Source: Octopus vulgaris
Taxonomy: Eukaryota
DNA length: 64,000 nucleotides
Assembly: GCA_951406725.2 (NCBI GenBank)
Contig: OX597828.1
Span: forward strand, 17,112,001 to 17,176,000
Direction of reading: 5' to 3'
Part shown: piece after piece, positions 3,930 to 56,572 of the stretch
Position numbering within the stretch: position 1 is the first letter of the stretch
Layout: each line of letters opens with the position of its first letter
Notes under the pieces: model-generated
Database searches by the model: none
What the model saw: only the letters and a program-made list of their open reading frames with translations
Told to the model about the DNA's origin: nothing
Made by a program: the position numbers and the translations under genes

Positions 3930-4060
3930 CTATTAATAGCGGCAAAATTACATTAGAACCGTTCCTCGGAGTTTCACGTTCCCGTTTGTCGGAACGTGAA
4001 ATTCTGAGTAAAATTTTTGTGATTATTTTCCAGCTTTAATAAAAGTTTATCTTCGGTACT
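3930..4060. mobile_element. Small fold-back element with a degenerate hammerhead motif (Penelope pLTR-like)
   Basis: 18-bp inverted arms 3965-3982/3991-4008; minus strand CCGACAA-ACG-GGAA-CGU-GAAAC-UCCGA; plus arm ends GAAAU-UCUGA-GUA; abuts (TA)n. Confidence 0.55.
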
Positions 4061-6989
4061 CGAGTACTATTCTTTCTTAAGACATCTCCGCATTGACATG
4101 TCCATCTACTCGTTAGAGTCACTGGCCATGTATATATATATCTGCCTCAAAATCGTATCCTATCATTTTTGGGAAAGAAGAACACGTTGAAATGCCATGG
4201 TGCTACCTAAACTATGTTGATAGAAAAATTAGTTGAACACAGCAGGAAGATCTATTATCATATATGTTTTCTATAACAACTCGCCTCGAACTAAACAAGA
4301 ACAACGACTACAAATGAAAGCATCACTACGACAAGTCTGTGGCCGCACGTGACCAAATATTAACTTTTAAAAGGAGACATTTAGATAAATGTTCAACAAA
4401 TTACATTAGAAAAATGAAAAAAAAGGAATAAAAAAAACTCAACAAATCAAGGAATAATAAAAGATGGCTGCTTAATGGAAGTTTGAGGGAAAAATAAAAG
4501 CATATCAGCCTCAAAGTGAATATCATACAAAACATTGTATAAAAAATGTGAGATTAATTTATCACTTAGAATTTGACTTCTAAGCATGCGCAAAGAAAAT
4601 CATCATTAGAAAAATGAATTTGCTCTGATTAATCGTCGTTTATGTTGTACAACACTATTATTATATTTTTTCATAGCATTTTGCGAACCGTATATTTAAT
4701 GAAAATAATGTATTACATTATAAAAATATAATTATATTATTAGATTAAAAATATTTTATTTATTTATATTTTTTTTATAGAAGAGTGGCGCTTTATGTAG
4801 AATAGTGTGGTTTGTTTGGAGGTTTTTCCCAGTGGCCAATTACTGGTTCGTTACATTTACAATGGAAAGAGTAACGAGGGACAGTCAGGTTCATGACTGT
4901 GGCTAGATTCGTATGATGTTCCAAGAGGCAGAATCTGATATCTCACGCTTAATGGATCGTCTAATAGAGGGGAAGTAACCGGTGGGGAGAGATAGAAGAG
5001 GAAAGAGAGGGAAAGAGATCAGAGAAAGAGAGAGAGAGAGAGAGAGTGAGACATCGAAGATGAGAAGGGAGAGAGAATATATTTAAAAAACAAACTCACA
5101 GTAAAAATGTCGTCTATAAGAAACCTCAGATTTTTTCAACAACCGGCAATATAATAAAACATAAATCCCAATAACTACTTGGTATGATATTCTGACCCAC
5201 GTTGGTCTCCATCATTTTGATTTGTTTTATTTTTGCTTTTTGTTCGTTTGTTTATTAAGGGTGTCTGCGCAGCTGGTGTGGAAAAATATCCCAAAAGTCT
5301 TTATGCAAATGCTTCGGCTAATCGCTTTTATATTTCATAGTTTTACATCATTTGCAGATATATATCACCGAATCGTATGTAAACATATCTAACACGTTAT
5401 TAAATAAATATGTATGCATATACGTATACACATATATGTACATACACACTCAACTACAAATGTAGTTATATTTCTCCGTACAACTGCGTGCATACATATA
5501 GCAGATGTTTTCTTAACTTACAGAATGAAAAACACTCATCTTTCACATATTTTTCTCCTTTAAATTTTCCCTGACGAAAGTCTCTATCCGAAACGTTGCA
5601 TTTTCCAATCCTCAGGTACGTTCACTGTACTCTTCATATAGATGTTGCTAAACACACACACACACACATACACACACACACACACACAGACACACAAACA
5701 CACGCACATTCAAGCCCCTGCACAAACACGAACATAGGTACCTATATATATACCTTTATAGAGTGCGAGAAAGGGTAGACTATGTATTTAGTTAAACGTA
5801 TCGAAGCCGTTACACCAGAGGCCAAGGATTTCAACGCCGAAACTAAACAAAAGTCGAGGAGTATAAGGTTAGAAATGGAGTTGATCTATTAAGTTTCGAT
5901 GGGTTTTATGACAACTTTGCACTGTGTTCAGTTTTCCATGTACGAACAGGTACATATATACGTTCCTACCTAGAAATATGCATGCGAACATATATACATA
6001 CACGTATGCATACAAGGTTCAAATTAGTATTTTCGATTCAATTCCTCCTTTTACATTTTCCCCACTTTGGCTAGTCATTCCTTATTTCCTTCAAACCTAC
6101 ACACAGTCCTGCAAAATGAAAATTTTCGAAACGTCATGACCATCTACCTCCATTACTACACCAAACCGATCACCTCGCGCCCTTTTTTTTGTTCTCTCGA
6201 CAACTTTTATGTTGTCGGACTGTATACAATACTACTTGTCTGTCTGCCTCTTTTCCATTCGCTCTGTCTGTTTCTATCTTTCTCCTATCTCTCTCCCTCT
6301 CTCTCTTCCTCTCTCATATCTGGATCGATTAAAGTATGTGGCTGGTAATTCATGGCATTATCTGGTACCAATTTATCCGAAACTCTCGTAAGCCGATTAG
6401 AAATGTTTAATTCTCCAAACTCTTTATCCTTGCATCCATGCGTCCATCCTTCACTCCACCCATCAGTCTATCTATCTATCTATCTATCTATCTATCTATC
6501 TATCTATCTATCTATCTATCTATCTATCTATCTATCTATCTATCTATCTATCTATCTATCTATCTATATATATATATATATATATATATATATATATATA
6601 TATATATATATATATATATATAATGAAGTATAATCAACGATTGTATGAATAAAATGGTGCCGAAACAGGTGTTGTGAATTTTAAACCTCACATGTGTTCT
6701 TTATATATATTTATGTGTACGCGCGCACGTATTTGCCTAGAACCGCTCAGATACAGGGATATACATACACCGACACCAGTTGTCAAGTTAAGAACAGGAG
6801 TCAAACAGAGACAAATGTACACAACCACAGATACACTCACACACAGATACGCACAAACACACAGATGCATATATATACATATATCCATACACACACACAC
6901 ACACACACACACACACACACACACACACACACACACACACACATATATATATATATATGCAACGGGCTTGTTTCAACAAGGGTGTGGTC

Positions 6990-7088
6990 GCTAGCGGTTA
7001 TGGTAGAAGGCAATCTCCCAAGGTACCACGCTGTGGGATTGAACACCGTACCATGTGCTTGGAATGCAAGATTTTTAACACACTGGTA
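6990..7088 (-). mobile_element. SINE family 1 head, degenerate
   Basis: cccaaggtaccacgctgtgggattgaacaccgtaccatgtg is the reverse complement of the family 1 head. Confidence 0.7.
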
Positions 7089-7121
7089 GTTCAGTGTATG
7101 TGTATGTGTATGTATATATAT

Positions 7122-7505
7122 CAGGAGTGGCTGTGTGGTACGTAGCTTGTATACCAACCACATGGTTCCGGGTTCAGTCCCCCTTCGTGGCACCTTGGGC
7201 AAGTGTCTTCTACTATAGCCTCGGGCCGACCAAAGCCCTGTGAGTGGATTTGGTCGACGGAAACTGAAAGAAGCCCGTCGTATATATGTATATATACATA
7301 TATGAGTGTGTGTGTATGTGTTTGTCCCCCTAGTATTGCTTGACAACCGATGCTGGTGTGTTTATGTCCCCGTTACCTAGCAGTTCGGCGAAGCAGACCG
7401 ATAGAATAAGTACTGGGCTTACAAAAGAATGAGTCCCGGGGTCGATTTGCTCGATTAAAGGCGGTGCTCCAGCCTGGCCGCAGTCAAATGACTGAAACAA
7501 GTAAA
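7122..7505 (+). mobile_element. Full-length bipartite tRNA-derived SINE, family 1
   Basis: A box gtggctgtgtggt, B box gggttcagtcc, internal TA/TG tract, 3' end cagtcaaatgactgaaacaagtaaaa; six similar copies in the window. Confidence 0.92.
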
Positions 7506-54670: not shown

Positions 54671-56029
54671 TATAAAGCAAAAATAATGTAGGGTAGAATA
54701 CAGATAGAGCCGTTCACGCTTTCCAATATACTTAATAAAAAACAAGAATTAAATCGTTTATATAATACATAATCCAGGATTTTCATTCATCGTTTGATTG
54801 AATTTTGAGATTTGTGTTGAAAATAGTAGAATATGAAAGTAATTGACTCCGAAGTTACATGATTGAATGATTGTATATACAACATTAGCTGCATACTTGC
54901 ATATTTGTTTAGGCCTGGATTTTTTTTATTAGACTAGACATGTGGGTCTAAACACACACATACACACACACACACACACATACACACACACACAAACACA
55001 CAAAGACAATCACACACACGTAAACATAAACAAACACACATATACATACACATATTGATACATACTTACATAGTCCTACATATGCGTATTAGATACATGT
55101 ATGTTTGTATATATATTATATAAATTATATATATGTATATATATATATTCACATATATGAATATTTATAGCATATTTATATACATGCATCCACACTCACA
55201 CATATACATATATATGTTTCCATGTTTTACAGCCGATGACTAATAATTTTCTGTTATGTTTATTGAGATATATCTGGAAAACCAAAAAGAAACAAAAAGA
55301 AACAAAAAAAAAAAAACAAAAGACAAAACTGCTTTGTTTTATTATTTCAAGATGAATAAATTAATACGGTTTGGAGCCAGTATATATATGTTGTTGTTTG
55401 TCTATTATATAATAAAGTAGTTTTGTAGATACTAAATCGAACGTTTCTCTTATATAATGCACTATCTCTAAGAATATTTATTGATATTGTTTGTTTTGAA
55501 ATATTGCAGCATTTCTCCAGAGCTGTCTTACACTATTTTTTATGGTAAGTGTTTAGTTATACTGTTTGCTTGATTCTGTTTGGCTCACAGAATAAGAGCT
55601 TCTTTAATCATGTTATATATTACGATATATTCCACAGCAAACTGATATGTCTCATAACATAAATTCTAAATACATCTCAATAGTTATATCATTGGTGATC
55701 GTCTCATACGCGCACACGCGCGTTCGCACATACGTATGTGTGTCCGTGTGTGTTTGTATATGCATTATGTGTCTGTCTATATGTGTTTGTATGTCGCTTG
55801 TGGTATATGGTTTTGTAAGATTTTTGATGTGAAATCGCGAGATAAAAACAGATTTTTTGATGTATCGTGGGAGGGTTGTTTTTGTTTTGAATAGCAGGCA
55901 AAGCAGGGGACACAACCGGTGAATGCATGTCATTTTGAGGCTACGAATGACGGTAAACAGTCACTGAAAGAATTGTTATATATATAGTTGATTATTTAGA
56001 TAGGTAACTAATTGAGTAAGAATCCTTTC

Positions 56030-56166
56030 TACTATGGGCACAGGGGATCGGGTAAGTCGATTATATTGACCCTAGGATTCAACTGATAAATTTATCGACT
56101 TCAAAAGAACGGAAGCCAAAGACTACCTCGACGGAATTGGAACTTACAACTTGAAGACGGACGAAA
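56030..56166 (-). mobile_element. SINE family 2 fragment
   Basis: taagtcgattatattgaccc...tttatcgac...acctcgacggaattggaact...gaagacggacgaaatg. Confidence 0.7.
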
Positions 56167-56378
56167 TGTACATGTATGTATATACATATATATATATATA
56201 TATATATATATATATATATATATATACATTATATATATACGTATATATATATATACATTATATATATACGTATATATATGTATACGTATATATTATATAT
56301 ATACGTATATATGTATGCGTATATATGTATATATGTATATATATATATATATATATATATATATATATATATATATAT

Positions 56379-56572
56379 GTAGGTCCCGGGTTGAGTCGGG
56401 GTTAACCACAGTAAATAAGGTACTCAATACATAGCAGAGTAAATTAATTTATTTTATAGAAGGAGCTTCTACAGGACTAGAACTGTTTCATTCAAAAGAA
56501 ATCATCAGGAAGCCTGATGATTTCTTTTGAATGAAACAGTTCTAGTCCTGTAGAAGCTCCTTCTATAAAATA
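56379..56572. mobile_element. Short fold-back insertion in (TA)n with a perfect 60-bp palindrome
   Basis: Arms 56450-56509 and 56513-56572 with 3-nt spacer AAG. Confidence 0.85.
56465..56513 (-). ncRNA. Type I hammerhead ribozyme motif
   Basis: GCUUC-CUGAUGA-UUUC-UUUU-GAAU-GAA-ACAG-UUCUAGUC-CUGU-A^GAAGC; stems I and III perfect, stem II weak (U.U first pair). Confidence 0.8.

Follow-up and report, generated by a model that had tools for sequence, protein, structure and literature searches.

Penelope-like elements, retrozymes and the window stubs

Penelope-like elements (PLEs) that bear an endonuclease (e.g., Penelope/Poseidon, Neptune and Nematis; PMC8557442, PMC3846280) are known for an inverted, 5′-truncated copy joined head to head to the main one, for partial tandems, a one-sided tail and a palindrome at the junction, and for a hammerhead ribozyme near the 3′ end and microsatellite targets. 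Here, we analyzed a 64-kb stretch of Octopus vulgaris DNA (contig OX597828.1, positions 17,112,001 to 17,176,000; hereafter the window), in which a preliminary description had named three hammerhead-bearing fold-back elements, at 3.9, 47.7 and 56.5 kb, and a further element at 21–23 kb, and to which we add a fifth at 16.8 kb, along with contigs from four other organisms. The window elements share these features with the endonuclease-bearing PLEs, except that their one-sided extensions are only possible counterparts of the tail, and the inverted, 5′-truncated head-to-head copy is seen in 5/5 of them. We find them to be real, non-coding stubs of the PLE type, and most of what had been inferred from them is known biology. 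What would be new is a positional bias of the junction towards the hammerhead core, relative to which the accessible text of the published PLE accounts (PMC8557442, PMC3846280) does not place it. This bias is suggestive, with odds in the window that are modest and post hoc, and the cases are too few to call a core-adjacent junction a rule. The stubs differ from their described counterparts in being devoid of reverse transcriptase (RT) or GIY-YIG coding and in their one-sided extensions of 55, 71 and 78 nt, against a published tail range of 30–40 nt. As RT and the GIY-YIG endonuclease are both missing, we do not class them as autonomous PLEs; a reading-frame check of the window found no long open reading frame in any stub.

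Three further systems come close. The Poseidon element PAc of Anolis, studied in vitro (PMC11167929), involves the nicking of both strands of AT-rich DNA, like that proposed here, and, as also proposed for the window stubs, reverse transcription beginning inside the RNA, some 110 nt downstream of the core. Unprocessed RNA was its dominant template and no reads ended at the cut site; an uncleaved template for PLE insertion is, accordingly, already in print. The available parts of that study map the RT start and mention no favored stopping point 5′ of the core. The minimal hammerheads of metazoan PLEs (PMC4209133) share with those of the window the type I fold, a short palindromic helix III and a U3–A8 core, and they also form opposite-strand pairs 100–700 bp apart, another likeness; a circular template was proposed there as well. 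The accessible portions of that paper contain no breakpoint analysis; they describe a Drosophila intron, the 3′ terminus of which adjoins helix I at its 5′ end, a position almost coincident with that of the window junctions. Animal non-LTR retrozymes (LTR, long terminal repeat; PMC7229834; Li et al. 2026 bioRxiv 10.64898/2026.07.22.740005) resemble the 47 kb element, whose 365-nt unit is likewise tandem and non-coding, has one type I hammerhead and is very abundant in four other organisms. The 47 kb element departs from the retrozymes in ending in an inversion and in TA joins. Thus, inversion, tail, partial tandem, (TA)n bias and junction palindromes are already in print, as are U3–A8 cores, opposite-strand hammerhead pairs, circular templates and tandem retrozymes. 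A survey of the open-access literature, with subscription papers and supplementary figures outside its scope, found no paper that places breakpoints relative to the core.

The role of the PLE hammerhead has been published as unclear, its cleavage being dispensable for insertion in vitro, and the origin of inverted pseudo-LTRs (pLTRs) is another unsettled published question. Both questions would come down to one measurable position if ends were reproducibly found immediately 5′ of the core. Should the end truly be set by the fold, the limit of short retrocopies and the inverted pLTR junction would both be placed a few bases 5′ of the catalytic core, and the PLE ribozyme would gain a cleavage-independent function; if there is no positional bias, the stubs are plain PLE debris.

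Anatomy of the five fold-backs

All junction offsets are counted from core position 3 (N3, C3 or U3), such that +4/+5 means 4–5 nt 5′ of it. One of the two clear cases is the 56.5 kb element. Its long arm (56379..56513, minus strand) is TA-joined, has a 71-nt one-sided extension and ends 4–5 nt 5′ of C3 (56508), whereas its short inverted arm (56513..56569, plus strand) is a perfect mirror beginning 1 nt 5′ of the core, with a TA join at 56570. The fold-back (56450–56509 against 56513–56572) is paired at 60/60 positions around a 3-nt loop, and the last base of the first arm is 56512 or 56513 (+4/+5), with 1 nt of microhomology. The predicted type I hammerhead on the minus strand is complete, with its cut site after 56470, a stem II of 3 bp after a U–U opposition, a stem III of 4 bp with an 8-nt loop, and a stem I of 5 bp, the 5′ strand of which includes the hairpin loop of the fold-back.

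The second clear case, the 47.7 kb (or 47 kb) element, comprises 1.74 units with one predicted U3–A8 hammerhead per unit, which is well formed, of type I and on the minus strand. Unit 1 (47034..47395, minus strand; 365-nt period) is TA-joined and has U3 at 47296, a cut site after 47266 and a 6-bp stem I; its core was passed by copying without a stop. The partial unit 2 (47396..47665, minus strand) is identical to it at 257/270 positions and has U3 at 47661. The inverted arm (47666..48099, plus strand), a mirror of 47089–47524, is TA-joined at 48100 and has a U3 of its own at 47894, 228 nt inside the arm. The fold-back arms (47089–47524 and 47666–48101) are identical at 408/436 positions and spaced by 141 nt. 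The junction at 47665/6 is at +4/+5 from U3 47661, within the 5′ strand of stem I, and copying restarts at the mirror of 47524, 141 nt back, with 1 nt of microhomology. The element is made, like a retrozyme, of a tandem non-coding unit in the 150–450 nt range, each with a type I hammerhead. Just to its left (46758–46976), 20-nt perfect inverted arms surround a TA/GT microsatellite.

At 3.9 kb, the stub adjoins a (TA)n run (3862..3926) by its 3′ end. The long arm (3927..3992, minus strand) carries a decayed hammerhead with a putative N3 at 3992, 65 nt from the TA-joined end, and the short inverted arm (3991..4050, plus strand; about 60 nt) starts in loop II and retains the cleavage triplet lost from the long arm. 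A 3-bp stem II, a GAAAC and a palindromic stem III are the putative hammerhead parts, and the two arms taken together suggest a decayed hammerhead, which the motif scans of the window did not detect. The arms agree at 16/18 positions in the inner part and in 43/61 columns overall (0/2000 shuffles as good). The junction (3990–3994) is at −2 to +2 and could therefore be in the core itself and not upstream.

The added 16.8 kb fold-back (16783..16925, minus strand) is hammerhead-like and decayed, with a putative C3 at 16846 and an A-rich spacer. Its arms (16791–16827 and 16884–16920) are identical in 35/45 columns (0/2000 shuffles as good), and in the long arm the junction falls 0–37 nt 5′ of the putative C3; its left end adjoins a GT/TA microsatellite. 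It (16791–16920) shares the stem III type with the 3.9 kb stub, to which it has no other relation, and on its sense strand 5′ of the putative core there is a long pyrimidine tract that resembles an intron 3′ end.

The 21–23 kb element has a distant junction. Its inverted arm (21126..21564, minus strand) is TA-joined, with a 78-nt one-sided extension and C3 at 21330, and stops 234 nt 5′ of C3, followed by about 28 nt of AT-rich filler; the main copy (21593..23419, plus strand) is non-coding, with internal direct repeats, C3 at 23290, the cut site after 23324 and a TA join at 23420. Aligned head to head, the two have 359 identities, 2 mismatches and one 9-nt gap in the 21 kb arm, which spans the cut site and the 3′ strand of stem I (21297–21299 against 23323–23331). 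None of the five reading frames of this element tested with Pfam, out of 44 listed, gave a match.

Three of these hammerheads (47, 56.5 and 23 kb) were found by motif scan, with 4 matches at a score of at least 10 against 0.0 in 15 shuffles, and those at 3.9 and 16.8 kb were read by eye. In an Rfam scan of the window, no hammerhead occurs among the 150 of 241 rows listed, which are microsatellite or hairpin noise. The matches at 47626–47666 (13.4 bits against 52) and 56480–56542 (18.5 against 48.5) miss the gathering score, and there is no hammerhead row at 23.2–23.4 kb. As minimal PLE variants match the Rfam models badly, we base the hammerhead name on the motif test. Folding energies of the five hammerhead regions are none better than those of shuffles (z 0.67 to −1.40). 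We dropped weak motif matches at 23684, 54292, 59731, 61098 and 42442, which are within the shuffle background, and excluded from the tally the inverted repeats at 30.4–30.9, 38.6–39.3 and 58.1–58.6 kb, which have no hammerhead match. A 21-nt pattern of the 56.5 kb hammerhead had 0 matches each in viral_contigs and genome_contigs; its single match in metagenome_contigs is a chance one inside a protein-coding stretch. The 8/8 viral_contigs loci that matched a generic head-to-head core pattern are not palindromic outside the pattern itself.

The three fold-backs named at 3.9, 47.7 and 56.5 kb are, thus, confirmed by alignment, and the five elements are unrelated in sequence, as had been claimed for these three (0/10 pairwise local alignments beat shuffles at p < 0.05). 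The breakpoint had been put at 0–5 nt upstream of the core in all three, which holds at 47.7 and 56.5 kb (+4/+5) and is less certain at 3.9 kb (−2 to +2). The tally of the five is 2 clear, 1 at −2 to +2, 1 at 0–37 and 1 at at least 234 nt. For the named elements, the junction is near the core in 3/4, since the 21–23 kb element, which is also a head-to-head hammerhead element, has a distant one; for the hammerheads found by motif alone, it is so in 2/3. The general ribozyme-linked integration signature that had been proposed is, hence, unproven and broken by the 21–23 kb element among the four.

These anatomies also bear on an assembly or library fold-back artefact, or a collapse of longer palindromes that shifts the apparent junction. 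The identical arms at 56.5 kb are what such an origin would give; yet, the loop there is the exact partner in stem I, as for genuine element sequence, the arms have diverged at 3.9 kb (43/61), 16.8 kb (35/45) and 47 kb (408/436) and differ by a 9-nt indel at 21–23 kb, and they are asymmetric, with one-sided extensions of 55–78 nt, stops at TA runs and non-mirrored flanks. We consider an artefact highly improbable.

Origin of the junctions

A hammerhead near the 3′ end, a head-to-head truncated inversion and (TA)n joins bear out the PLE-type origin proposed in the preliminary description. The claim that the template ran through the cut site is likewise supported: each long arm holds the cut site and both its flanks, and the template was therefore uncleaved, religated or jumped across. 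The anatomy, the offsets, this read-through and the TA joins are read directly from the DNA. The enzyme, the RNA end and the order of events that we infer would be as follows. A GIY-YIG endonuclease would nick AT-rich DNA, and reverse transcription would start inside uncleaved RNA, 60–260 nt downstream of the hammerhead; the RT would pass the cut site and then the core. In many of the events, it would then run off the template at a favored RNA 5′ end situated where the hammerhead fold has its 5′ foot, either because transcription had begun there or because the RNA had been trimmed as far as the protein-bound fold. The cDNA, its end now free, would resume synthesis, with 0–1 nt of microhomology, on an antisense copy (the strand itself, or a second cDNA that had been primed at the nick in the opposite strand), the outcome being a head-to-head inversion with a one-sided extension. 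We tentatively favor this account, in which the stubs are PLE-written 3′ ends in (TA)n and the polymerase runs off the template 5′ end at the hammerhead foot, and give it not quite an even chance. The broader notion that, across unrelated PLE families, it is the fold of the hammerhead rather than cleavage that determines where the copied RNA has its 5′ end, or where copying stops, appears unlikely.

Run-off is supported by the offsets of +4/+5, +4/+5 and −2 to +2 in three unrelated elements and of 0 to +37 in a fifth. It also agrees with published PLE traits (inverted truncated copy, tail, (TA)n bias, nicking and extension of both strands, internal start and uncleaved template), with the fold-like conservation of the 47 kb hammerhead and, though not diagnostically, with the drop in contig depth across it, both described below. 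We prefer it over a structural stall because the ends lie on the 5′ side of a fold that a polymerase coming from the 3′ side would already have unwound. The RNA end may alternatively be a trimmed or splice-related one rather than a plain transcription start, and self-priming on the antisense template, as published for junction palindromes, may be another route to the junction.

A related account, close to the switch at stem I of the preliminary description, is that RT on uncleaved, religated or circular RNA was blocked, or switched template, at stem I. Its best physical form would be a dimeric ribozyme, in which the 5′ strand is still paired to a second RNA after the 3′ strand has been copied. 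In 2/2 clean cases, the first strand does leave in the 5′ strand of stem I, and the short palindromic stem III at 47 and 23 kb is of the dimer type. The restart, however, is off the stem I complement in both: a snap-back on that complement predicts another continuation than the one seen in 2/2 cases, leaving only the departure point of the proposed switch standing. Moreover, the 56.5 kb hammerhead needs no dimer, as its stem III has 4 bp with an 8-nt loop. The 1.74 units at 47 kb would fit a circle, but a linear multimer accounts for them equally well; circular or religated RNA and a linear multimer are indistinguishable here, the 47 kb element being the only one that bears on the choice. Similarly, the 9-nt loss in the 21 kb arm could record a jump over cleaved, trimmed RNA, but 1 nt of microhomology accompanies the gap, which may have arisen by deletion later on. 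On balance, we regard a block or switch at stem I as quite improbable.

Ordinary PLE truncation combined with ascertainment, whereby junctions would be tied to the core by chance on short stubs, is a more serious contender, one that we hold to be possible, if doubtful. Hammerheads lie 60–260 nt from the RT start, copies are very short, and only stubs that form a tight hairpin and hold the core would get noticed. The distances from the TA-joined end to N3 across the five elements (65, 63, 129, 204 and 262 nt) are about the truncation half-length of 59–121 nt, a rough value from the depth decay described below, at which the probability of stopping within any one 8-nt zone is 0.045–0.089. Under such smooth decay, the probability of at least 2/3 motif-found elements ending at the core is 0.006–0.022, that of at least 2/5 passes through the core is 0.018–0.066 and that of at least 3/5 fold-backs is 0.0008–0.006, the last figure being inflated because the decayed cases were found as short hairpins. 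Against chance, then, two clean and unrelated elements share the offset +4/+5 (p 0.006–0.07).

Several observations weigh against run-off at a preferred end and, in part, for chance. The 8-nt zone was picked after the data had been seen, in one stretch of DNA among many scanned. In the 21–23 kb element, C3 is 234–262 nt away from the junction on the left-arm side and 1697 nt away in the right copy, and at 47 kb the cores of both unit 1 and the inverted arm were passed; 1/4 named elements and 3/5 core passes, hence, do not stop at the core. In Drosophila Penelope, the mapped start precedes by 46 nt an intron of 75 nt whose 3′ end coincides with helix I and, so, is not at the core. Contigs from other organisms add to this. 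We aligned contigs from 4 of the 24 listed runs to one unit of the 47 kb element (47190–47554; 1583, 2246, 2782 and 901 contigs), the runs with parts of the unit being from four other organisms, each at a small share. The family is abundant in these organisms, and its sequence continues over the unit join (e.g., a contig of run X3 spans 47282–47433). No joint among the 11 listed, and no loose end among the 24 of 566 listed, falls at 47296–47302. Both opposite-strand joints (47430 and 47452 to 47551; run X1) are far from the core, and contigs crossing 47301 compared with 47506 give ratios of 1.07, 1.03 and 1.19, with 0.59 in the fourth run. Depth drops 6.7–12.2-fold across the hammerhead, but query divergence alone yields dips of 3.7–6.6-fold elsewhere, with smooth decay adding more, and the drop is therefore not diagnostic. 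Smooth decay fits most runs, with a depth at 47301 relative to 47506 of 0.26, 0.40, 0.013 and 0.49, and at 47355 relative to 47487 of 0.15–0.44 (fixed-difference sites, like for like).

This comparison is insensitive to inversions, with 2 opposite-strand joints in 7512 contigs. The joint 47294 to 47254 (runs X2 and X3) is at the core, but its orientation is unreadable and it is counted for neither side. The equal depth over 47299–47303 in run X3 is at about 2% of its neighbours and has little weight against an end there. Taken together, the four-organism contigs neither show nor exclude a hotspot.

The same contigs inform on the fold. The 47 kb hammerhead has the core, the three stems and variation that spares the core: among the 40 of 82 variant rows listed, 9 variants are inside the motif, all in the loops or stem I and 0 in the core. 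The stem III loop letters 47269–47270 vary together, at near-equal depth, to another palindrome in the four organisms, which would be a sign of selection for a dimeric hammerhead; in general, the 47 kb hammerhead appears to vary like a fold under selection. Loose ends joined to TA are found at 47393 in 15 contigs from run X1, and past this TA-joined end the depth of the contigs remains high over about 35 nt (47359–47395). The stretch beyond 47393 may be an optional tail of the family.

TA context and other repeats of the window

The window is AT-rich and dense in microsatellites; runs of at least (TA)6 number 113. The preliminary description had all of its elements in or against TA repeats, which is nearly so: of the ends of the four named elements, set by eye, 7/8 abut (TA)6 or longer, the exception being the right end at 3.9 kb, compared with 1.0% of background positions within 3 nt of a TA run. 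The TA targeting that it proposed is real here, though already published for PLEs and not specific to hammerhead elements. TA ends are also found in a short interspersed element (SINE)-like family (7/12, with 1/14 within 3 nt for other repeats), and the bias is therefore not a property of the hammerhead.

This SINE-like 430-bp repeat has six copies (7097–7526, 10432–10826, 11268–11646, 20058–20487, 26508–26907 and 29167–29579) and an internal TA/GT microsatellite; ARAGORN found no tRNA in it. Elements resembling miniature inverted-repeat transposable elements are present at 38630–39318, with 252-nt terminal inverted repeats and telomere-like hexamers at its centre, and at 30356–30898, with 32-nt terminal inverted repeats. 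Dispersed repeats of 90–115 nt occupy 53260–54484, with a CUGAUGA heptamer at 54292 that lacks convincing stems. A fragment of a Pif1 helicase 2B domain (59274–59822, E 3e-15), which we take to be Helitron-like, is neighboured by a 166-nt tandem repeat (58570–59056) and a 57-nt inverted repeat (58125–58573).

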